Shown: piece after piece, positions 1,736 through 52,392 of the stretch
How the letters are laid out: each line of letters begins with the position of its first letter
How positions within the stretch are numbered: position 1 is the stretch's first letter
Origin: Candidatus Poribacteria bacterium
GTDB lineage: Bacteria; Poribacteria; WGA-4E; PCPOR2b
DNA: 64,000 bases
Assembly (NCBI GenBank): GCA_965208425.1
Contig: OZ242335.1
Coordinates: 84,586 to 148,585, forward strand
Reading direction: 5' to 3'
Notes under the pieces: model-generated
What the model was told of the DNA's origin: nothing
Databases searched by the model: none
The model's input: the letters and a program-made list of their open reading frames with translations, nothing else
Position numbers and translations under genes: made by a program

Positions 1736-1811
1736 TCTACGCTGCCCTTTACGTTAGGGTGGGCAAGGACAACGGCGAGGTTGCCGAAGGCGTAATTCCT
1801 TGCCCCGTAGA
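1736..1811 (-). ncRNA. Pseudoknotted IS605 leader RNA motif, copy 1
   Basis: Stems TCTACG/CGTAGA, GGGCAAGGA/TCCTTGCCC, CGGC/GCCG, CCCT/AGGG; pseudoknot TTACG/CGTAA. Confidence 0.6.
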
Positions 1812-10315: not shown

Positions 10316-10425
10316 TTTACATCTCCATGCTATTTTCTTGTTTCGACGAGATATGCCACGAAGTGCCGTGGGCTTACCATCTCTCCACCCCGATAAATCG
10401 GGATCTCCCGATAAATCGGGACGTT

Positions 10426-11526: not shown

Positions 11527-11541
11527 TGGAATTGTCTTTCT

Positions 11542-11616
11542 GTCTTTCGAGACCTATAGTAGTAGGTGTGGGAGACCCTAACGTGCGTTAGGGCTACTAT
11601 TTTCCCACCGAAAGAC
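11542..11616 (-). ncRNA. Pseudoknotted IS605 leader RNA motif, copy 2
   Basis: Stems GTCTTTCG/CGAAAGAC, GTGGGA/TCCCAC, CCCTAAC/GTTAGGG, ACCT/AGGT; pseudoknot ATAGTAG/CTACTAT. Confidence 0.65.
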
Positions 11617-11892
11617 AAACCAAGTAACCATATTTTGCCAACAATATCAAGTTTTTTAACGAAAGCACGATACGACAACGTTTGACCCAACGCTAAGTCC
11701 CGTTTCACGGGATCCCGATGTATCGGGATTGGAAACAGCACCTACCAATTTGGAGTGTCTCATTAATTCTAAAATCTACTATAAATGAAGCCGTGAACGA
11801 ATTGTCCTCACGTTTCACACATCACGTTTCACGCATTATACCCCGTAGTTTAGCAGAGAGGGATTGCAGAGTCAAGATAAACAAAAAGATAA

Positions 11893-41930: not shown

Positions 41931-42043
41931 AACGTGATGCGTGATAATCCGCAAACGGTGCGAGAAAAATCACCCCTTAAATCAGTCTTAATGCTTGACA
42001 GAACCGCTTCTATTTGTTACAATATATGTAACAGTTGGATAAT

Positions 42044-42247
42044 TATAGTGAATTCTAAAAATAAAGGGACACTTTCGCCTCCCGGTAGGTGCGGTCCGAT
42101 AAATCGTGACCAGGGCTTCTAACCGCATCGCATAGATGCCGTGGTGGGTTGAAACGGCTTGTCCCGATTCTCGGGATCTCGATAAATCGGGATTGGAAAC
42201 AGTGCCTACCAATTTAGAGTGTTCCATTAATTCTAAGATCTACTATA
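42044..42247. repeat. MITE family B (inverted)
   Basis: TATAGTGAATTC...ATTAATTCTAAGATCTACTATA. Confidence 0.65.
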
Positions 42248-42357
42248 AATCAATAGGAGGTTTTACATGACATCTTTCAATTTACTCAAGCCAAAGTCTA
42301 GGCTTCGGTCTAATGATTTTCCGTTACAAATAACGGTAAAACTGATATAATTGTTTT

Positions 42358-42430
42358 GTCTTTCGGTGGGAGAATGGCGTACCGTCGCTTGGCGGTGTCT
42401 CCTACACCTACGCCAAGGGAATCGAAAGAC
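42358..42430 (+). ncRNA. Pseudoknotted IS605 leader RNA motif, copy 3
   Basis: Stems GTCTTTCG/CGAAAGAC, GTGGGAGA/TCTCCTAC, ACCGTC/GGCGGT, CCT/AGG; pseudoknot TGGCGT/ACGCCA. Confidence 0.65.
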
Positions 42431-42445
42431 GGAAAGACAATTCCA

Positions 42446-43546
42446 ATGTTAAAAACTCACAAAATCGCTTTAGATCCAAATAACGTTCAAGCGACGCAGT
42501 TCGCTCAACATTGCGGTTATGCTCGTGTTGCATATAACACTGCCTTAACCGATTTCAAAGAAGGATTGGATACAGGTGATTGGCGTTGTCATATAGTGCT
42601 CTGTCGTCGTTTGAATGCAATCAAAGCAGAAGCCTTTCCTTGGTCAACGTCACATTCGCAAAACGCCTCCAAGAATGCGATTTATACCAATCTCAAGGAT
42701 GCTATAGGACGTTGGAAGTCAGGACAGAATCGGTTTCCCAAGTTCAAGAAGCGTTCACACGGTCAGAGTTATCAAGCGGATAGCGGTCGAGGCACAATCC
42801 CTGTCGTAGGCAAGCGGATTAAACTTCCCAAAATCGGTTGGGTTCGCTTATGTCAATCCCTACGCTTCCTTGGTACTATCTGCAAAGTCGTTATCTCTAA
42901 GACAGCTAACCGTTGGTTCGCTTCTATCACTGTTGATACTTTTATTGACAATCCCATATCTGATAATCGTGGACTTCCTACTGTTGGTGTGGACGTAGGT
43001 ATCAAGCACTTGGCGGTCACGTCCGAAGGGGTGTACTACGAGAATCCGAAAGTCTTAAAACGTTATGAGCGCAAGTTAAAACGGTTACAACGCCGGTTAA
43101 GCCGCCGGGAAAAAGGGAGTCGGAATTGGCATAAGACGAGAGCGAAACTTGCCAAGCTGCATTACCGTATCACCTGTATCCGACAAGACGCTCAACACAA
43201 GGCAACAACAGCTATTGTCAACGGTGCAAGTCGTATCGGAATAGAGTCTCTGAACGTTACTGGAGTGCTCAAGAATCATAGACTTGCCAAAGCATTATCA
43301 GATGCCTCACTGTCAACGTTTCTGTCTATGCTCAAATACAAGGCAGAACGGATAGGCGTAAAGATTGTAGAAGCAGACACCTTCTACCCAAGCAGTAAGA
43401 CTTGTTCCGCTTGCGGTACGGTCGATAGCGACTTGTTCTTGTCGGATAGGACCTACCATTGCAGTGTGTGTGGTCATACACAAGACAGAGACCTTAACGC
43501 TGCAATAAACCTCAGAACCGTCGCCGTGGGACACACGGAGACGTAA
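42446..43546 (+). CDS. tnpB: TnpB RNA-guided endonuclease, close paralog of 10426-11526
   Basis: GVDVGIK, IGIESLN, CSAC/CSVC, DRDLNAAINL. Confidence 0.95.
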   Translation: MLKTHKIALDPNNVQATQFAQHCGYARVAYNTALTDFKEGLDTGDWRCHIVLCRRLNAIKAEAFPWSTSHSQNASKNAIYTNLKDAIGRWKSGQNRFPKFKKRSHGQSYQADSGRGTIPVVGKRIKLPKIGWVRLCQSLRFLGTICKVVISKTANRWFASITVDTFIDNPISDNRGLPTVGVDVGIKHLAVTSEGVYYENPKVLKRYERKLKRLQRRLSRREKGSRNWHKTRAKLAKLHYRITCIRQDAQHKATTAIVNGASRIGIESLNVTGVLKNHRLAKALSDASLSTFLSMLKYKAERIGVKIVEADTFYPSSKTCSACGTVDSDLFLSDRTYHCSVCGHTQDRDLNAAINLRTVAVGHTET

Positions 43547-43656
43547 AACGTCCCGATTTATCGGGAGATCCCGATTTATCGGGGTGGAGAGATGGTAAGC
43601 CCACGGTACTTCGTGGCACGTCTCGTCGAAACAGGAAAATAGCATGGAGATGTAAA

Positions 43657-44265
43657 ATGTCTACCAATCAGTCTATTAAGAATCCCAAGTCTTTAGGCTT
43701 GGGAGCAGTCAATGATTTACAACAGATTGCTAAGGCAGCGCAAGAGATTATCCAGATCTGTGAGCAAAAACGGACTAACAAAGCAGACAAGGAAAAGCTG
43801 CTTAAGCTGCAGGGGGCAATCCTCACACATATCGAAGAGCTTACCGAATGCGAAGCTTGCGGGTCAATCACAGATCTAGTTGTGACGATGACGATCGAAC
43901 CGGTGACGGCAAAGCTATGCAAAGATTGTGGGATAAGCGCGATCGAAGCCGGAAAAATTAAAAAAGCTACGACGCGAAAGCGATCCCCCCGAACTGCACA
44001 GAAAAATGTACCAGTATCGAAGAAAAAATCATCGCCACGACGAGCATCACCCAAGAATGCCGACGAACTGTATGCCGAGGTAGAGAAGGAAACAAGGCTC
44101 AAGAAAACGGATGTCAAACGCCTGCACAAAATTATCCAAGAGATCGCGAGTCCGATGAACCTTGAGAACACAGTCTTATATGTGAAGCATGAGGCTGAAC
44201 TTGCGAAATTGAGGATAGAGCAAGATGCTTTGAAAACGGCGGTCACGTTATTAATGGCGGCGTGA
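43657..44265 (+). CDS. Hypothetical zinc-finger, K/R-rich protein; N-terminus supplied by the IS right end
   Basis: CEAC...CKDC and a basic SPR/SPK linker. The original AGGAGG-ATG start is stranded at 42255-42269. Confidence 0.75.
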   Translation: MSTNQSIKNPKSLGLGAVNDLQQIAKAAQEIIQICEQKRTNKADKEKLLKLQGAILTHIEELTECEACGSITDLVVTMTIEPVTAKLCKDCGISAIEAGKIKKATTRKRSPRTAQKNVPVSKKKSSPRRASPKNADELYAEVEKETRLKKTDVKRLHKIIQEIASPMNLENTVLYVKHEAELAKLRIEQDALKTAVTLLMAA

Positions 44266-44362
44266 AATTTCGCTATCATATCTCAGACTGCATCAAGGTT
44301 CGTCCGTTGAACCTTGCGAAGATTTGGAGCTTTTGGAACTTTTAGTTAAACCCGACAATTTC

Positions 44363-44391
44363 TGAAACAGATTCTCTCCTGATGACGTTTA
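44363..44391 (+). promoter_or_regulatory. Candidate ECF autoregulatory promoter
   Basis: TGAAAC-N17-CGTTTA just upstream of the ECF gene. Confidence 0.4.
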
Positions 44392-44436
44392 GGATAGTAC
44401 GATCTTGGAAACGATAGGGACAAGGAGGCGCTTACC

Positions 44437-45045
44437 GTGACAGATAAAATGATCGATGACCTATCGGATCAAGAAGATACACAACTGGCAACGTTGACAA
44501 AGGCGGGAAACGAAGAGGCCTTTCGATCGTTGTTTGATAAACATTACAACTGGGTTTATAGTAAAACGTATCGAATGCTGTGCAATCATCAGGATACGGA
44601 GGAAATATCCTTAGATATCTTTATGAAAGTGTGGCAGAAGATCGGGAAATGGGATACTGTTCAAGGTAGTTTTCAAGCGTGGTTGAATGTTGTTGCAAAA
44701 AACACAATAATTGATGCAATCCGCAAAAAAGAAAGAATTCGTGAGTCACTTTTAAGTATGGAGGATGAATCTGAATTGCCACTTGTTGAATACCAAGACC
44801 AGCGACCAACGCCTGAAAAACAGGTCGAATCCCGAGAAGCTCAAGAGATTCTTGAATGGGCACTCCAGATGGTGAAAAAGCCAAATCACCGAGTTGCTTG
44901 GATTTTACGCCATCTAGAGGGGTGTAGTATTGCCGAGATTTCGCAAACGCTCCAGCGTAAGGAAGGAACTGTTAAAATCTGGATCTTCCGTTGCACAGAG
45001 GAGTTACGCCAAATTCTGACCAGAAAGGGTCTAAAATGGGTTTAA
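44437..45045 (+). CDS. ECF sigma-70 factor
   Basis: Region 2 (GNEEAF..LFDKH, D.EE...DIF.KVW, FQAWL..VAKN..ID) and region 4 (EG.S..EIS..L....GTVK). Confidence 0.92.
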   Translation: MTDKMIDDLSDQEDTQLATLTKAGNEEAFRSLFDKHYNWVYSKTYRMLCNHQDTEEISLDIFMKVWQKIGKWDTVQGSFQAWLNVVAKNTIIDAIRKKERIRESLLSMEDESELPLVEYQDQRPTPEKQVESREAQEILEWALQMVKKPNHRVAWILRHLEGCSIAEISQTLQRKEGTVKIWIFRCTEELRQILTRKGLKWV

Positions 45046-45061
45046 TGATTAGGGGGATAAA

Positions 45062-46204
45062 ATGAAATTTTGGAAAAAAGTAACACAAAATTTCAGTAAA
45101 GATGAAGTAAGAAAAGCGGAGATGCTAGAGATTCATACACGCAGAATCCGAGGAGAACGGCTATCTCGCAAGCAAACCCGGTTGTTAAAAGCAAGCGAGC
45201 AATATCCAGAATTGGACCCTTTGAAAGATCTCATTGATTTTGCACATCACCGTTTTGAGGAGAGAGAAAATGTCACCCCGCTTCCTGGAGCAAAACGACG
45301 CATCGCTAACAATCTGATGCAGTTAATTGGTCGTGACGCTCCGGAAGATGATGCGCTGCTAGGCGATGAAATTAGCTTGGTGCCAGCATACAGCCCTGAT
45401 CTGGTCGGGAGTGATAGTGAACTTGCCTTACCAAATGTTTCCGGTGATCTACCGCCACCAATTCCTGAATCGATAGATCCGCTTAATGAGACTGTCATCC
45501 TTGAAGGTGAAGCGGTAGAATCGGCAACGTCTCCAGTAGAGGCATGTCACCTGAAATTGCAGGTGGCGCAGGGCGATGAGGTTGGACGTGAGTATGACAT
45601 CTCTTTCCAACCTATGATTATCGGCTGTGGGGGGGAGGTAGCTGTCCAGTTAGATGCCAACACCCCTGTATCACAACATCATGCGTTACTCACTGTTGAT
45701 GACGATGAGCTGCTGATCACAAATCTTGACAGCGACAGTGGTACGTCGGTTGATGGCGCTAAAATTACTGAACCAACACCACTTCATGTCGCCTCTAGGG
45801 TCCAGATAGGCGGACAGGTGCTTGAAGTGGCTGCATTCCGGCGGGATGCTAGTGTCCTAGGTGTTTCCTTTGAAGTTGTAGAAGGACCCGATGTGGGACA
45901 GGTCCACTGGGTCCATTTCAAAGAAATGACGGTCGGACGCAGCGCAGCAGCGCAAATCAAACTTGCTGATTCAACAGGAACCCTCTCTCGCCTACATGCT
46001 CGGTTTAATCTGAAAAACGGCGAGGTATATCTTACCGATCTCGGTAGTAAAAACGGGACTTACGTTGATGGCTTTCGTATAGAGGAGCCAACCGTCGTTG
46101 AACCAGGCATGCGCATTGGGTTCAGTGAAATTATCTGTGAAGTCACGCACATTGAAAATTCCAGAGACAATCCCAATGCTTTAGCGTTGGGTCAAACGGC
46201 GTAA
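45062..46204 (+). CDS. Soluble protein with two FHA domains, putative anti-sigma or regulator
   Basis: Second FHA intact (GR, SRLHA, SKNGT); first FHA degenerate. The last 13 codons come from an inserted IS left end. Confidence 0.8.
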   Translation: MKFWKKVTQNFSKDEVRKAEMLEIHTRRIRGERLSRKQTRLLKASEQYPELDPLKDLIDFAHHRFEERENVTPLPGAKRRIANNLMQLIGRDAPEDDALLGDEISLVPAYSPDLVGSDSELALPNVSGDLPPPIPESIDPLNETVILEGEAVESATSPVEACHLKLQVAQGDEVGREYDISFQPMIIGCGGEVAVQLDANTPVSQHHALLTVDDDELLITNLDSDSGTSVDGAKITEPTPLHVASRVQIGGQVLEVAAFRRDASVLGVSFEVVEGPDVGQVHWVHFKEMTVGRSAAAQIKLADSTGTLSRLHARFNLKNGEVYLTDLGSKNGTYVDGFRIEEPTVVEPGMRIGFSEIICEVTHIENSRDNPNALALGQTA

Positions 46205-46599
46205 TTTTGTCCCGATTCTCGGGATCCCGACCTGTCGGGGCTTGATGTTCTTAGCAAAAGTATGGTATAATTTTAATACGTCCAAAAGCGGGAGAGTCTC
46301 ACCCCTACGCCTTGTAGGGTCTCCCGTTCCTTCTGGTGAAACAGAGGAATTGGACGCGTGGCTACCCAAGCCACATAAGGACGAAAACCAAGTCCAACAA
46401 TTATACCGTCGTGGCGGGACACGCCAAGACGTTAAAACGCTTGTGGAGGGACAGTAAGACCTCCGATGTATTGGAGGCAAGTTTCGTCGAAGCAAGTATA
46501 CGGCAGGGGTGCCCTTATCTGGACAGGCCCGTAAGTCCGTTAAAAACTCTCAAAGGAGACTCATAAGAATCCCAATGTTTCAACTTTGGGAGCGGTCAA
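46157..46599 (+). mobile_element. Non-autonomous IS200/IS605 derivative (leader RNA plus omegaRNA-like region, no tnpB)
   Basis: TTGAA|...CAAT plus hairpin CCCAATGCTTTAGCGTTGGG; right end AAGAATCCCAATG...TTGGGAGCGGTCAA. 46405-46500 resembles the tnpB 3' omegaRNA at 43518-43640. Confidence 0.8.
46279..46356 (+). ncRNA. Pseudoknotted IS605 leader RNA motif, copy 4
   Basis: Stems CGTCCAA/TTGGACG, GCGGGAGA/TCTCCCGT, CCTAC/GTAGG; pseudoknot GTCTCACC/GGTGAAAC. Confidence 0.6.
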
Positions 46600-46874
46600 C
46601 ACATTTAGTCAATGAGTCTGTCTGTGATTTCGTGATTCAGTACAACGAAAGTAAACAGATAGGTTCGGGCATATACAATACGCCGCCTATTATTACATGC
46701 CGCATTTTTCTTTTCACCACAACGTGGAGAGAGGGATGCGGTTTTTTTCTATTTGAATTTTGAATCGTCTAAGGTATAATATTTCAACCTAAATGACTGT
46801 TAAATCGTACATACCTCCTGTTAAGTACTCCGACAATTCAGTGAGGAGAGGAGTTTAATCCTCATCAGTCACCC

Positions 46875-47978
46875 ATGAGTCAGAGACAAGCTGCATTTAC
46901 CTATTTTAACCGTGCTGCAAATCTTTATCGGCAAGTCTGCTATGCCCAAGCCATTGAATATTATCTGGCGGGCTTAGAGATCGATCCGATGTGTGTGGAG
47001 GGGTATGCAGACTTGGCAAAGGCGTATGAAAAATTGGGGTGCTGGGATCAAGCAATTGAGTCGCTGGAGACTGCGCTAAGACTCCGTCCCGGTTATCCAA
47101 CCGCCCTTCGCCGCAGGGAACGCATTATCGAGGAGAAAAATGTTTATGATAGCTTAACCGATGAACTAAACCTAGCCCTTAGTGCCGCTGACCAACATCA
47201 GTCAACCGATCCAGTTCAGCGAAGTAACCTCGCAATCGAACACGAGTTCTTCACACTAACCGGTCGGTGCACAATCTCACAGAAGTTACTATTGATCATC
47301 TCGCAAATCATCGAACGCACCTATCATGAAGTTGGCAAAATTTTCCAATACCATCCGCAACACAAGGTTCCTGTCTTTATTGAAGATGCCAAGCAAATAG
47401 ATACGTCACAAGTCACAACGTCGGTGCACAGCACAGTATCTCCGGTTGAAGTTGGAAATCACACACTGTTTTCGGAGGTTTCTCTCCCACAGTGGGCGGT
47501 CGCTTGTTATGACAATGGAAGCATTCGGCTGGCTTACCGCCCTTATCGCGATTCCAGTCTCGGTGTTTTATACGCAGTCATTCGCCACGAATGGACACAT
47601 CTTCTTATTGACCTACTGGCGGGGGGGCGATGTCCCAACTGGCTTGACGAAGGACTCGCTCAATTTGTTGCACGCCCGTTAATGAGCTCTGAGAAGACGT
47701 GCTTACAACAAGCAAATCGAGATAAACAGCTCTTACCTCTCCACCTCCTGCGAAAACCGTTTCGGAACCTTCCGGAGAAGCAACGTCGTTTAGCATACCT
47801 CCAGTCCTACGCAATCACCAGATACCTGATACAGCAGTTCGGTTTTGCTGTACTCCGAGATGTTCTCAAACACCTCGGTGACGAAAAATCGACCGATACA
47901 GCATTTCAAGAGGTGTTCGGGAAAACAGAAGAAGAAATTGTCGTCGCTGCAAACGTGGAGCATTGCATGACCGTCTAG
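46875..47978 (+). CDS. TPR plus peptidase MA-like (gluzincin) protein
   Basis: N-terminal TPRs; HEWTH...P.WLDEGLA; AY.QS. Confidence 0.8.
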   Translation: MSQRQAAFTYFNRAANLYRQVCYAQAIEYYLAGLEIDPMCVEGYADLAKAYEKLGCWDQAIESLETALRLRPGYPTALRRRERIIEEKNVYDSLTDELNLALSAADQHQSTDPVQRSNLAIEHEFFTLTGRCTISQKLLLIISQIIERTYHEVGKIFQYHPQHKVPVFIEDAKQIDTSQVTTSVHSTVSPVEVGNHTLFSEVSLPQWAVACYDNGSIRLAYRPYRDSSLGVLYAVIRHEWTHLLIDLLAGGRCPNWLDEGLAQFVARPLMSSEKTCLQQANRDKQLLPLHLLRKPFRNLPEKQRRLAYLQSYAITRYLIQQFGFAVLRDVLKHLGDEKSTDTAFQEVFGKTEEEIVVAANVEHCMTV

Positions 47979-47989
47979 GAGAATTAGTC

Positions 47990-48484
47990 ATGGGAAAACT
48001 TGATATTGCCATCATAATCATCGCTGGTGTGGGTGGTCTGAGCTGCCTGCGGGCAGGCTTTACACGGAGCGTCTGGGGAATTGCTGCTCTGTCTGCTGGT
48101 ACATTCGTCGCTAGCCAAGTCTGGCAAGACGTGACCCCTTTCCTGCTCCGTTTCATAAAGCAAGAACCGCTCGCTAAGTGGATTAGTATTATCGCTATTG
48201 TTGCCGCTGTGAGCATTGTGATTGATATGGTGTTTAGTCACATTCAGAAGATCGTAGAACGTGGCGTCTTAGGGTGGGTCAACCACATCATTGGAGGTGC
48301 TTTTGGAGTGGTATCTAGTGCTATTCTGATTGGATGTTTTCTCTTGTTGTTGGATCGCTTCGGCGGAGAGGAAGCTAGACAAGCCGTTGCCAATTCCCGT
48401 TTTGGCCCCGATCTCTTAGAGATTGCTAGGCAAGTTTTCGATTTTGGGGAGGAGGCAATTAAAGAACATTTTGGCCCGATGTAA
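47990..48484 (+). CDS. cvpA: CvpA (colicin V production) family membrane protein
   Basis: LDI.II...G...GF..S, four transmembrane segments, LGWVN...GG.FG. Confidence 0.8.
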   Translation: MGKLDIAIIIIAGVGGLSCLRAGFTRSVWGIAALSAGTFVASQVWQDVTPFLLRFIKQEPLAKWISIIAIVAAVSIVIDMVFSHIQKIVERGVLGWVNHIIGGAFGVVSSAILIGCFLLLLDRFGGEEARQAVANSRFGPDLLEIARQVFDFGEEAIKEHFGPM

Positions 48485-48492
48485 AAGGCAAT

Positions 48493-48644
48493 GGCTCATG
48501 TAAAAAGAGAGTGCAAAGCACGAAGTAAAGGCCCCCTTTGTACCCCCCTTAATCCCCCCGCCCCGACAGGTCGGGATGCAAGCACAAGCAGGGGGAGAGT
48601 AACCCCTGATAAATCGGGATGCAAGTGCTTGTGGCTTATGAGCG
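48493..48644. mobile_element. MITE family A
   Basis: 8-bp duplication AAGGCAAT. Confidence 0.85.
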
Positions 48645-48688
48645 AAGGCAATTCTTCAGCGCACCCTAATTTCCCACAGAACTAACCC

Positions 48689-49411
48689 ATGCACAGCTGC
48701 TATGTTCCGCCCCCGCAAATCTCCGAAGACACCATCCATATTAACGAATCCGAGCAGCATCACCTGCTCAATGTACTCCGCTTGAGGACTGATGATCAAA
48801 TTGAAGTCTTTGACGGAGTAGGCAACCGTTATATTGCCTCACTTCATGATACCCCCACTTCCCCACTACAGGCGAAGATTCTCCAGCATCAGTTTCACCC
48901 ACGCACCCCACCGTATATTACCCTATTTCAGGGCTTGCCCAAATTTGACAAAATGGATCTAATCGTGCAGAAGACAACCGAGATCGGTGTGAATGAAATT
49001 GCGCCGATGATTTGTGAGCGTTCAATACCGAAAGCGGTTGTACAGCAGAAACGGACGGTACGCTGGCAACGGATTGCAAATGAAGCTGCCAAACAGTGTA
49101 AACGTCCCCATTTCGCCCACGTATTTGCCCCTGAGGGGTTGGAGGGGTGTCTTGGAAGGGTAGACCACTTAGATCTATTAATTCTGTTGTGGGAAGGCGA
49201 AAAACGGCAGGGACTCAAGGAGATATTACGAAATCATGGTGCGGCAAAGTCAATTGGGCTTTTTGTGGGACCCGAAGGGGGATTCACAGACGAAGAGGTG
49301 GAGTTGGCAGCTCAAAACGGCTGCCTACCTGCAACATTCGGCGGCAATATCTTGCGCACAGAAACCGCTGCAATCGTTAGCGTAGCATCGGTAATGTATG
49401 AACTCAGGTAA
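48689..49411 (+). CDS. rsmE: 16S rRNA m3U1498 methyltransferase
   Basis: HLLNVLRL, K.DKMDLIVQK.TEIGV, EAAKQC.R, VGPEGGF, ILRTETA. Confidence 0.95.
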   Translation: MHSCYVPPPQISEDTIHINESEQHHLLNVLRLRTDDQIEVFDGVGNRYIASLHDTPTSPLQAKILQHQFHPRTPPYITLFQGLPKFDKMDLIVQKTTEIGVNEIAPMICERSIPKAVVQQKRTVRWQRIANEAAKQCKRPHFAHVFAPEGLEGCLGRVDHLDLLILLWEGEKRQGLKEILRNHGAAKSIGLFVGPEGGFTDEEVELAAQNGCLPATFGGNILRTETAAIVSVASVMYELR

Positions 49412-49446
49412 GCATCACATACCCTGTATCAATGAGAAATTGATAA

Positions 49447-50409
49447 TTATTGCCAGACTATCAGGACCGCAAGTGCTTCACCCGGCGTATTCCACAAGAA
49501 ATCAAACGCCTCCTTCGCCTGTTTGTATGGAAAGCGGTGAGTGATCATCCGATCGGTTTGGATCTTTCCAGTCCGAATCTTCTCCAACGCTCGAAACGCA
49601 GTTTGTGAGAGCGGTTCATCGACAAGGATACCTGCCACAAGTCGCTTACTCATAATTTTCGATGAATGCAACGGCAACGGTTCCCCTTGGTATAATGCGA
49701 TCAGCTGGAGAGTCCCTCCCCTGCGCACCATATCCTGCGCCTGATCAAACGATTTGACACCCGCATGTCCACCGACACAATCAACGACCAGATCTGCACC
49801 TTTCCCATCGGTTAAACGCTGTACCTCTTCGATGGGGTCCGCTTCCGACGCATTAATCACAGCATCCGCTCCCAATTCCTTTGAGATTTGACAGCGCAGC
49901 GACAACCCATCAACTGTGATGATTCTAGCAGGATCATACCCGCGCAGGATCTGCATCATCAAGCTGCCCACAACGCCTTGACCCAAAATAACGATTGTAT
50001 CTCCCGCCTGTGCCCCTGACGACGCCGCCCACGCTGTCGCCTCTGTCGAAAGCAGGAGGAACGTCCCTGCTTCAAAGGAAACATCATCTGGGAGTGAGAC
50101 CAAATGCCCCCGCGTCGAGTCCGCATCGCCAACGACATATTGTGCGTGAGGCGCAGCGACCATCACCCGTTGACCAATCTGATACTCCGTAACATCGGCT
50201 CCGACCTTCTCGACGGTGCCCGTGAGGGAATATCCCATAATCGAATGCGGAAGTGCTTCTTCACTGATATAACGACGAAACAGTTCCGAACCACGACTAA
50301 TCAATGTCCGTTCCGTCCGTACTAAGACTTGACGGCTGTTGATCTCAGGGATAGGTGCATCTTCTAACTGAATATTGCCGAAACCCTCTGGTTTAATTAC
50401 GCGAATCAT
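49447..50409 (-). CDS. Zinc-binding (MDR) dehydrogenase family protein
   Basis: LISRGSE, GYS..G.V..VG, GQGVVG, GADLVVDCVG. Confidence 0.85.
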   Translation of the reverse strand: MIRVIKPEGFGNIQLEDAPIPEINSRQVLVRTERTLISRGSELFRRYISEEALPHSIMGYSLTGTVEKVGADVTEYQIGQRVMVAAPHAQYVVGDADSTRGHLVSLPDDVSFEAGTFLLLSTEATAWAASSGAQAGDTIVILGQGVVGSLMMQILRGYDPARIITVDGLSLRCQISKELGADAVINASEADPIEEVQRLTDGKGADLVVDCVGGHAGVKSFDQAQDMVRRGGTLQLIALYQGEPLPLHSSKIMSKRLVAGILVDEPLSQTAFRALEKIRTGKIQTDRMITHRFPYKQAKEAFDFLWNTPGEALAVLIVWQ

Positions 50410-50424
50410 CGGTGTAGTCTCCTA

Positions 50425-51564
50425 TTATGCGTTACCCAAATTCCGCTTCTCCCAGCCACCTTCTCCGTACATATCCAAGAAGTATGATTCGTCATAGGGA
50501 TATTTTGCCATCTCCGCTTCGTTGAGATCTATCCCCAAACCGGGGCGATCCGGGATGATGACGTTGCCATCTTTGATCTCTATTGGATAATCAACAATCT
50601 TTTCAGCGAAGGGTGTCGCAAAGTCCTCAAAGACCTCTTGAATCATAACATTTGGCGTTGAGGCATCGATATGGAGGCAAGCAGCGGTACAGACAGGACC
50701 TTGTGCGTTGTGGGGTGCGACGGACACATGATAGGCGTGTGCAATAGCGCAGATCTTCTTCATCTCTGTGATGCCGCCGGCGGGGATGGGATCCGGCTGA
50801 ATCACCTGCGCTGCCTTCCGATCCAGCAGTTCCATAAACGCTTCCTTGCCGGATAGCCCTTCGCCGGCGGCGATAGGAAACGGCAGTTTAGAAGCGATGA
50901 AAGCGAGATCGTCGATTTGTGGGGAGCGCACCGGTTCCTCAAACCAGCCCGGATCAAACGCCTCGAGTCTGCGCCCAATCTTGACGCTGAGCAGCGGATC
51001 GAAACGCCCATGCCCTTCAATGAGTAGTTCTACATTGGGACCGACCGCCTCCCGCACTGCTGCAATTATATCGATTGAAAGGTCAATCTCGCTAGGGGCG
51101 ATTCGTCCGTAAGCGTTTCCAAAGGGATCGAATTTAAGTGCAGTATAGCCTTTCTCGACAACCGCTTTGGCTTTCTCGGCAAACGCTTCAGGGATACGGT
51201 CCACCTGATACCAGCCGTTAGCGTAGGCGCGGATGCTATTTCGATATGCCCCACCGATCAGTTGGTAAACCGGTAGCTGAACTGTCTTACCGATGATATC
51301 CCAACACGCCATGTCCACCGCTGCTTTGACATAGAAAGGGGCGCTCCCCTTTGTAAGTTCTTCGTAAATTTCTTCCGTGTTGAAAGGATCGCGACCGAGG
51401 TAATAGCGGCGCATCTCGATGACGGCGGTCTCTGCTGTTTTTGCTTTGCGATGGCTTGTCGCCTCACCGATTCCGTAGACACCATCATCGGTGTGGAGTT
51501 TGATAAACACCCAGTTTTTCCACGGGTTCCCAACGATAAAGGTCTGAACGTCTGTTATTTTCAT
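50425..51564 (-). CDS. Mandelate racemase/galactonate dehydratase (enolase superfamily)
   Basis: G.GEA, D.ACWDI.GK, YANGWY, KFDPFG, E.HGR, WFEEP, AAGE, QPD, PHN. Confidence 0.9.
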   Translation of the reverse strand: MKITDVQTFIVGNPWKNWVFIKLHTDDGVYGIGEATSHRKAKTAETAVIEMRRYYLGRDPFNTEEIYEELTKGSAPFYVKAAVDMACWDIIGKTVQLPVYQLIGGAYRNSIRAYANGWYQVDRIPEAFAEKAKAVVEKGYTALKFDPFGNAYGRIAPSEIDLSIDIIAAVREAVGPNVELLIEGHGRFDPLLSVKIGRRLEAFDPGWFEEPVRSPQIDDLAFIASKLPFPIAAGEGLSGKEAFMELLDRKAAQVIQPDPIPAGGITEMKKICAIAHAYHVSVAPHNAQGPVCTAACLHIDASTPNVMIQEVFEDFATPFAEKIVDYPIEIKDGNVIIPDRPGLGIDLNEAEMAKYPYDESYFLDMYGEGGWEKRNLGNA

Positions 51565-51633
51565 GGATTAATGGCCTAGATATAAAGCATTTTTACCGCA
51601 ATGCGTGCACTGCAAAATAGAGCAAGACTTTAA

Positions 51634-52085
51634 CGAAAACTCCTTTAGGTCTAAATCCCAATCCTTTAGGTTTGGAGCAGTTGGGGCGCAGCCTATACAG
51701 ATTGCTTTAGCATTTTTTCTCTTGGTGTTTCAGTCAAAATATGCTATACTTATTTTTGCCAATTCGGGATAGAATATGACCCTCGGCAACCTCGTCGAGG
51801 TTCTATCCCACCACCGTCATAGTGGTAACAGATTGGTGAATAGGCGACACCTTTTAGAAAAATCAGTGACCGGGAGGATCGACACGACCTATAGGGGATT
51901 CGTGTCGCCCTGACCTATCGTCGCCACAAAGTATCAGGGTGGCTTGGTGGGTGTGTTCCCCACCTTGTTCCCACCCTGTAGTTGGGGCCCATGGCGTCCC
52001 CCCGTTAGGGTGAGACTCCCTAGCTGTGAGTTCGGCTTGCATAGCGTTCAAGAATCCCAATGCTTTAGCTTTGGGAGTACGTCAA
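51634..52085 (+). mobile_element. Non-autonomous IS200/IS605 derivative with a long structured interior
   Basis: TTAA|CGAAAACTCCTTTAGGTCT-AAAT plus hairpin; right end AAGAATCCCAATGCTTTAGCTTTGGGAGTACGTCAA. Confidence 0.75.
51758..51837 (+). ncRNA. Pseudoknotted IS605 leader RNA motif, copy 5
   Basis: Stems CCAAT/ATTGG, GGGATAGA/TCTATCCC, CCTCGGC/GTCGAGG, ACCAC/GTGGT; pseudoknot TATGAC/GTCATA. Confidence 0.6.
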
Positions 52086-52141
52086 TGCGTACAAGTAACA
52101 GCATCGGTAGGATTCATATTAGCAACTTGCGTGATTCTAAC

Positions 52142-52392
52142 TATAGTGGATCTTAGAATTAATGGGACACTCCAAATCCCGATGCTGTTCCCCCGATAAA
52201 TCGGGATTAAGAAACGAGCATTCCGATATATCGGAACTTGTCGAGGATGCCGATGAATCGGCACCGGTGCGGTCCGATAAATCGTGACCAGGGTTGGAAA
52301 CCGCACCTACCGGGTTAGACTGCATTCGGTGCGGTTTTCAACCGCACCTACCGGGGTACGAAAGTGTCTATTTATCTTTTGAATCCACCATA
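52142..52392. repeat. MITE family B with several inserted palindromes
   Basis: TATAGTGGATCTTAGAATTAATGGGAC...GAATCCACCATA. Confidence 0.65.

Follow-up and report, generated by a model that had tools for sequence, protein, structure and literature searches.

In this study, a leader RNA of about 75 bases, carried by transposable elements of a Candidatus Poribacteria (sponge symbiont) genome, was shown to be a three-way junction (stems P1, P2-P2' and P3) that is locked by a pseudoknot of 6-7 bp between the bulge of P2 and the loop of P3. The elements belong to the tnpB-only (IS1341-like) class of the IS200/IS605 family, together with miniature derivatives. Five copies, E1 to E5, lie in the window, that is, the whole stretch of 64,000 nucleotides that was analysed. 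With hundreds of copies and five covarying helices, the pseudoknot included, the leader constitutes a well-supported RNA family absent from Rfam. On the evidence of sequence, our preferred reading, to which we assign a probability of roughly 0.45, is that the leader is a cis-acting, 5'-terminal structured RNA made from the sigma-70-type promoter of the element, where it would serve both as a stabiliser and as a gate of translation. TnpB nucleases gave rise to Cas12 and are under development as compact genome editors; to our knowledge, the control of TnpB expression within transposons has been little studied.

Architecture and covariation of the leader

One common fold was obtained with RNAfold in the 64-kb window at all five sites, with the coordinates and strands listed below. 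P1 is the outer stem, and P2 is a stem of 8-9 bp with a bulge of 6-8 nt on its 5' side, capped by the apical hairpin P2' (6-8 bp) with a four-base loop that is mostly GCNN. After P2 come 1-2 unpaired bases and then P3, a short hairpin whose loop of 6-9 nt is complementary to the P2 bulge, and another 3-5 unpaired bases separate P3 from the 3' strand of P1. The minimum free energies at the five sites ranged from -35.0 to -38.8 kcal/mol (z -3.5 to -4.6), with 0-1 of 200 shuffles as stable.

42358-42430 (+), leader fold of E3, by RNAfold and the covariance model
42358-42365/42423-42430 (+), P1 of E3
42366-42373/42398-42405 (+), P2 of E3
42375-42380 (TGGCGT) with 42410-42415 (ACGCCA) (+), pseudoknot of E3, P2 bulge with the P3 loop (L3)
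42381-42386/42391-42396 (+), P2' of E3, loop GCTT
42407-42409/42416-42418 (+), P3 of E3
11542-11616 (-), leader fold of E2, pseudoknot ATAGTAG/CTACTAT
46279-46356 (+), leader fold of E4, pseudoknot GTCTCACC/GGTGAAAC with one C.A mismatch
51758-51837 (+), leader fold of E5, a tnpB-less derivative, pseudoknot TATGAC/GTCATA
1736-1811 (-), leader fold of E1, a tnpB-less derivative, pseudoknot TTACG/CGTAA

A preliminary description of this DNA had proposed the same covarying, pseudoknotted fold in five IS605-type elements, and both RNAfold and the alignments and model scan described below bear it out; the fold is on the sense strand and lies between the element promoter and tnpB. Four of the pseudoknots quoted there were correct, namely ATAGTAG/CTACTAT (7 bp), TGGCGT/ACGCCA (6 bp), TATGAC/GTCATA and TTACG/CGTAA; the fifth, given as GTCTCACC/GGTGAAAC, contains the C.A mismatch, and its longest contiguous run is TCACC/GGTGA.

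An alignment and a covariance model of the fold were then built. MAFFT-only alignments of five and of 13 copies were out of register, and RNAalifold on the MAFFT alignment recovered only P2 and P2'; these alignments were therefore replaced by a hand-given structure on seven close copies (E2 and E3 from the window and five copies from elsewhere in the genome), followed by model-based alignment. The resulting model, R1, has 82 positions and 27 pairs and contains no pseudoknot. When all 64 kb were scanned on both strands with filters off, R1 gave 13 matches at E<=10, of which the top five were exactly E1-E5:

11539-11619 (-), R1 match of E2, 90.5 bits
42355-42433 (+), R1 match of E3, 80.5 bits
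46277-46358 (+), R1 match of E4, 36.1 bits
1732-1815 (-), R1 match of E1, 28.5 bits
51755-51840 (+), R1 match of E5, 24.7 bits

No further significant R1 match was found in the window by this unfiltered scan of both strands. The sixth match was the antisense of E2, at 14.2 bits versus 90.5 bits in sense, and the structure was shown to be specific to the sense strand. Of 2593 cells, 142 are G.U and 77 are A.C.

Covariation was very strong both in the copies of the own genome and in those of other genomes. In the own genome, 37 matches (32 distinct) formed standard pairs in 94.4% of cells, as compared with 81.1% after shuffling of the columns and 42-51% with the partner slid by 1-3 columns, and both sides had changed in 20 of the 27 nested pairs. 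In other genomes, 87 matches (80 distinct) were paired in 94.0% of cells versus 79.2% in shuffles, and both sides had changed in 30 of 34 pairs, a figure equalled in 0 of 500 shuffles; since both alignments were fitted to the model structure, the counts for the nested helices are favoured by the fitting. The pairing of the pseudoknot is independent of it, because the model contains no pseudoknot. When the pseudoknot was written in as a fifth helix, both sides had changed in 6 of its 7 pairs in the own genome (one pair occurred as AU 11, GC 9, UA 7 and CG 4 times), and the helix was paired in 92.7% of cells over the 80 distinct copies of other genomes. Moreover, in a register-free test the longest complementary run between bulge and loop averaged 6.16 bp for cognate and 3.64 bp for non-cognate combinations, with cognate runs of at least 6 in 25 of 32 copies. 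Thus all five helices (P1, P2, P2', P3 and the pseudoknot) covary. Few unpaired positions inside the fold are conserved: the apical loop keeps a G (95%) and a C (99%), and a single A is kept behind P2 (94%).

The rates of change differ among the helices. For the 49 loci of one TnpB family, pairwise comparison gave a mean difference of 0.50 at four-fold degenerate sites and likewise 0.50 at the five variable pseudoknot pairs; it was 0.36 in P2', 0.34 in P3 and 0.23 each in P1 and P2. P1 and P2 are therefore constrained in sequence as well as in pairing, and change at half the four-fold-site rate. The variable pseudoknot positions (columns 23-27 with 119-123 of alignment A5) change at the four-fold-site rate while 92.7% of their cells are paired, a turnover that is unusually fast given that two substitutions are needed for each change. 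The leader accordingly offers a clean natural data set on the evolution of a pseudoknot.

Setting in the element and distribution

Read 5' to 3', the element opens with a left end that bears an imperfect hairpin of the TnpA type (CCCAATGCTTTAGCGTTGGG type). A -35 box and an extended -10 box (TGnTATAAT) come next, then the fold and an SD-like stretch ahead of tnpB, and after tnpB an omegaRNA-like region and a right-end hairpin terminating in GTCAA. The fold begins about 6-7 nt past the extended -10 and ends about 15 nt ahead of the tnpB start codon. That the fold is itself the TnpA-binding end hairpin of IS200/IS605 elements was considered and rejected, as the end hairpins (CCCAATG...TTGGG type) are separate and lie about 90-110 nt upstream. 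The features of the five elements around their leaders are as follows:

42323-42351 (+), promoter-like site of E3, GTTACA-17-TATAAT with TG extension, -10 ending 7 nt ahead of the fold
42446-43546 (+), tnpB of E3, 366 aa, family 'MLKTHKI'
43678-43712 (+), right-end hairpin of E3 and terminus ...GGGAGCAGTCAA
11526-10426 (-), tnpB of E2
10294-10260 (-), right end of E2
46160-46599 (+), E4, a tnpB-less derivative of 440 bp
46170-46193 (+), left-end hairpin of E4
46242-46271 (+), promoter-like site of E4, by consensus scan
46565-46599 (+), right end of E4
1847-1819 (-), promoter-like site of E1, by consensus scan
1290-1256 (-), right end of E1
51745-51750 (+), -10 of E5, TATACT, with a weak -35, read by eye
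52050-52085 (+), right end of E5

Each fold had been described as following a sigma70 -10 box by a few nucleotides. At E3, E4 and E1 a consensus scan gave promoter-like sites that end 7-8 nt ahead of the fold; read by eye, E5 has TATACT with a weak -35, and E2 has the poor -10 TTACTT. In E2 (11620-11650, -), this degenerate box replaces the TATAAT of its relatives while the fold and the tnpB frame are intact, and the copy may be transcriptionally silent. Over 127 distinct copies, a -10-like hexamer was located 2-12 nt upstream of the fold in 113; it lay exactly 5 nt ahead of the first modelled pair in 83, and the TG extension was present in 81. This spacing places the expected transcript start, as predicted from the promoter, on the first pairs of P1. 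On the other side, the tnpB start codon lay 11-13 nt past the end of the model in 42 of 50 tnpB-linked copies, which included four TnpB families.

In the own genome (6.81 Mb, one contig), 150 of 1180 candidates were scored with R1 and yielded 63 matches at E<=1; a second model, R2, gave 66, so the motif is a high-copy family of the host genome. The 63 R1 matches together with E1 and E5 made 65 instances. A TnpB frame of at least 300 residues followed the fold in 38 of them and fell into four families (8, 4, 8 and 18 copies), and a shorter or broken TnpB frame followed in 15. The other 12 did not fit the TnpB start patterns: on reading, two still begin TnpB frames, eight, including E1, E4 and E5, are short and tnpB-less, and two are broken or doubtful. 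The P1 and P2 sequences ahead of the four families are near-identical, and the families share about 27-37% identity. At their 5' end, tnpB-only elements and guide-RNA-only miniatures alike are marked by the leader.

The retention of the fold in elements that have lost tnpB, on which the preliminary description had based its view that the fold is more than a tnpB translation signal, was confirmed: E1, E4 and E5 have no tnpB frame and have the family right end 250-480 nt past the fold. E4 contains a part homologous to the omegaRNA. Moreover, the pseudoknot has kept changing in such copies, with ATCTCAC/GTGAGAT, ACTTCAC/GTGAAGT and GTCTCACC/GGTGAAAC in the E4 type and TTACG/CGTAA and TTGCAA/TTGCAA in the E1 type, and these compensatory changes within one lineage, which are seen between copies in P3 as well, indicate that the fold is maintained where there is no tnpB to translate. 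A role in translation may nevertheless coexist with whatever the fold does there.

Several smaller observations were made on the same elements. In the tnpB-less elements, the leader fold is separated from the omegaRNA part by a stretch with one or two small hairpins that have a common loop, GAAAACCAAG or GATAACCAAG (window 46357-46440; G000:C1:1872311-1872370, 866986-867045 and 4671444-4671503); their stems covary (GGAC/GTCC, GGC/GCC, GGGC/GCCC), and the 5' arm repeats the P1 3' strand. A tiny palindromic repeat, with units like TCCCGATTTATCGGGA that are often paired, is inserted in and beside the IS copies and at many other sites of the genome; it occurs in the window at 43551-43590, 46209-46241 and 10380-10421, and one contig from an RNA run lacks the 32-nt copy at 46210-46241 (joint 46209/46242). 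At positions 1-1137, the window holds a further tnpB copy that starts before it (frame 79-1038, right end 1102-1137), and the leader fold of this copy lies just outside, at G000:C1:84395-84473 (R1, 30.6 bits).

Beyond the own genome, R2 matches were present in 18 of 19 other genomes of the genus in a sample of relatives, with up to 93 matches per genome, in two of five genomes of other genera of the family and in four of 16 from other families of the order. Sampling across the phylum gave matches in 83 of 151 Poribacteria genomes (20 of 25 in family f1 and 62 of 100 in family f2), and the fold was found in none of the 25 genomes searched from seven other families. Public genomes supplied 71 TnpB-anchored loci. 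The fold is present at 59 of these, and among the 12 that lack it are the only two loci from other phyla, one of Lachnospiraceae and one of Bacteroidales, a number too small for a general statement. A pattern scan of metagenomes for the arms of P2 returned at least 120 stretches, and no fold was found at E<=0.01 among the 80 loci listed; the stretches are unrelated hairpins and thus uninformative on occurrence outside Poribacteria.

Proposed roles in stabilisation and translation, and competing explanations

The sequence of the P1 3' strand recurs just downstream, in the region of the SD sequence and start codon, and co-changes with P1 across lineages. In the initiation region of E3 (42432-42448, +), a second copy of it, GAAAGAC, lies at 42432-42438 and is SD-like, and the ATG is at 42446. 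Pairs of P1 3' strand and downstream copy include GAAAGAC/GGAAAGAC, GGAAGCC/AAGCC, AAGGAC/CAGGAC and GAAACGGA/GAAACAGA, and in AACTATGCG/AACTATGCG and AGCAATGC/AGCAATGC the downstream copy includes the ATG itself, as it does at loci L064, L153 and L062. Across 14 clusters of P1, one of them counted although its tail is truncated where its locus ends, the complementarity between the P1 5' strand and the downstream region averaged 6.2 for cognate combinations, with values of at least 7 in 8 of 14, as against 4.27 and 14 of 182 for non-cognate ones. The P1 5' strand thus has two possible partners. In the nearest-neighbour ensembles of ten examples, the share of pairing was 32-96% for P1 and 1-54% for the alternative helix, and P1 was clearly favoured in most; the leader therefore has a helix over the SD and start codon that is mutually exclusive with P1, as a translational switch would have. 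The 3' end of the 16S rRNA is ...CACCTCCTTTCTAAGG, which makes the GAAAG-type copies SD-like and gives the P1 5' strand a likeness to the anti-SD tail. Taken as sequence, this repeat points to translational gating in addition to stabilisation. A purine-motif triplex formed by the P1 3' strand and its downstream copy was also considered and was rejected on reading the sequences, because the registers mismatch.

The preferred reading can be stated as a series of predicted steps. Transcription would start on the first pairs of P1 and give the RNA a compact, paired 5' end, by which the tnpB mRNA, and in miniature elements the omegaRNA precursor, may be protected from decay that depends on the 5' end. 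The P1 5' strand would then have a choice between the P1 3' strand, serving as a decoy, and the copy in the initiation region. With the junction correctly folded, the ribosome site would stay open, and with the alternative helix formed, the site or the start codon would be closed, so that the balance of the two helices might set or modulate the translation of TnpB. Because P1 and the alternative helix both enclose one and the same domain, the pseudoknot alone cannot decide between the two states. A 5' stabiliser was among the functions first suggested for this fold, and the suggestion fits the predicted transcript start on the first pairs of P1. Protection of the 5' end would also explain why the fold is retained without tnpB and why its distance to the -10 box is fixed. 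However, a plain hairpin would be enough for such protection, and both the elaborate, conserved architecture and the slow change of P1 and P2 (0.23 versus 0.50) suggest a more specific partner. Against gating stands the fact that the tnpB-less copies keep the fold with no reading frame to regulate. If the leader does stabilise or gate, it would be a natural control part for the expression of TnpB and omegaRNA, and the family a candidate entry for Rfam.

The conserved sequence of P1 and P2 hints at contact with a protein or with the ribosome. The leader could be a platform for a protein, such that the fold recruits the factor or is sequestered by it. The protein may be a host factor or TnpB, the latter by feedback or with the fold as a further part of the TnpB-omegaRNA particle; a second module of the omegaRNA was among the functions first suggested. 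P1 and P2 are conserved beyond what pairing needs (0.23 versus 0.50 at four-fold sites), the G, C and A noted above are nearly invariant (95%, 99% and 94%), and the fold is kept beside the omegaRNA part in tnpB-less copies, all of which such a platform would account for. Yet the same leader precedes four TnpB families of only about 27-37% identity, and a TnpB-specific contact would be expected to diverge together with its protein; near-identical P1 and P2 sequences thus argue against recognition specific to one family. Nor do the variable words of the pseudoknot have a third pairing partner within the elements, where 40 cognate matches were counted versus 46.4 expected, with no recurrent position. 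We regard protein binding, a proposal drawn from the sequences, as unlikely, with something like a one-in-five standing; if a protein does read the leader, it would be an added component of the OMEGA system.

A bolder proposal is that the leader is no passive stabiliser but a dedicated TnpB/omegaRNA module, a bistable RNA read by a protein or a signal that would choose between translation of TnpB and the guide-RNA precursor, with the pseudoknot as a copy-specific code against interference among dozens of co-resident elements. This is a long shot, and we offer it as speculation.

It is quite improbable that the leader is a switch that senses a ligand or a condition and so chooses between P1 and the alternative helix closing the ribosome site. 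Translational riboswitches are laid out with a three-way junction, a tertiary pseudoknot and a mutually exclusive helix over the initiation region; by analogy the leader resembles them, and its downstream repeat covaries with P1. Nevertheless, its junctions are short and variable with few conserved unpaired nucleotides, the sequence of the pseudoknot varies at the four-fold-site rate, no Rfam riboswitch family matched it, and there is no obvious metabolite for a transposon to sense.

Elements of the IS200/IS605 family move as single-stranded DNA and use folded ends, which raises the question of whether the fold forms in the single-stranded top strand and aids excision or integration by TnpA. 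Since sense strand and top strand are one and the same, strand bias does not tell RNA from DNA, and the miniature elements have kept the fold. Against this explanation, the TnpA-type hairpins are separate and upstream, and the distances from the fold to the -10 box and to the ATG are fixed. Furthermore, the genome has eight Y1-transposase matches, and no fold was found with filters off at six tnpA-bearing loci, where the best score was 11.6 bits; one of these elements (L145) has the right end and the left-end/promoter region in common with E5 and carries a short, plain leader ahead of tnpA. In addition, the -10 box and the entire leader are missing from two deletion subfamilies of this tnpB element. 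One has the promoter spacer fused to the ATG; the other has the left-end hairpin fused to the SD-like copy:

G000:C1 at about 534367 (+), 5980371 (-), 6253234 (-) and 4936902 (-); 825161 (+); loci L086, L092, L117 and L074, deletion subfamilies

Both occur at more than one locus here and, with identical junctions, in other genomes, and so have multiplied without the fold. Judged by these sequences, transposition does not seem to need the leader fold, and a role in single-stranded DNA is very improbable.

Of 24 sequencing runs, 18 are recorded as RNA, each containing 0.05-0.11 of the sampled words. Four sponge metatranscriptome runs were mapped as assembled contigs, which give neither ends nor strand. 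Contig depth over the leader was 0-2.7 at E3 and 2.7-17 at E4, and over the omegaRNA and right end it was up to 80 at E3 and 44-362 at E4. Should this difference be real, accumulation of the omegaRNA is not accompanied by accumulation of the leader. The high-depth regions were 43503-43836 (E3) and 46342-46675 (E4), and several contigs diverge exactly at the termini 43712 and 46599. A ribozyme was also among the functions first suggested; by cutting itself, it would trim the 5' end or set free the RNA that follows. Such an activity would suit a compact pseudoknotted fold and the high-depth contigs of E4 that begin downstream of it (for example 46366-46432), although contig ends carry little weight; it can practically be set aside, given that there is no conserved catalytic core, with three conserved unpaired positions only, that the predicted transcript start is already at P1, and that no Rfam ribozyme family matched at E<=10.

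Relation to known RNAs

No family of Rfam 15 matched anywhere in the window at the gathering score, and in the region 42000-52200, which holds three copies, four weak matches at E<=10 were returned, none of which overlapped a fold. The families covered by these scans include IS605-orfB-I, HEARO, the HDV-like, twister and hammerhead ribozymes and the riboswitches. RF03065 (IS605-orfB-I) and RF02033 (HEARO) are included in Rfam 15 (PMC11701678), and the TnpB omegaRNA contains a pseudoknot (PMC10097598). In the literature outside subscription journals and supplementary motif lists, no description of a pseudoknot in a tnpB 5' leader was found. As far as could be seen, a pseudoknotted three-way junction that contains a decoy of the initiation region and is specific to tnpB-only elements and the miniatures derived from them is new.

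The IS605-orfB-I/omegaRNA is likewise structured, covarying and tied to the tnpB (orfB) gene of IS200/IS605 elements. It lies at the 3' end and right end and carries the guide, whereas the leader fold lies at the 5' end, 1.1 kb upstream, and has a different architecture. That the leader is the TnpB omegaRNA was rejected as well, the omegaRNA-homologous region and the right end of E2 and E3 being 1.1 kb downstream. HEARO, the IscB omegaRNA (RF02033), is also a structured RNA 5' of the gene for a transposon RNA-guided nuclease; unlike the leader, HEARO is the guide RNA itself, and in tnpB elements the guide RNA region is at the opposite end and the leader has no Rfam match. The leader shares with translational riboswitch platforms a closing helix of the junction that competes with a helix of the initiation region, but it shows no evident ligand pocket and matches no Rfam family.

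The preferred reading has parallels in simpler leaders. Stem-loops that stabilise the 5' end are known from the ompA leader of E. coli, the aprE and ermC leaders of B. subtilis and the STAB-SD of cryIIIA, and, as here, they have a base-paired extreme 5' end with an SD-like sequence directly after it. The present fold is far more elaborate and conserved than those hairpins, and its stabilising effect is a prediction. Moreover, a stem-loop in the 5' UTR of IS200 tnpA occludes the ribosome site, and IS10 is subject to fold-back inhibition, so that in these elements too a structure of the element's own leader acts on the ribosome-binding region of its gene. The leaders of IS200 and IS10 are simple closing hairpins, whereas the one described here is a junction with a decoy copy that is kept even in elements without the gene.
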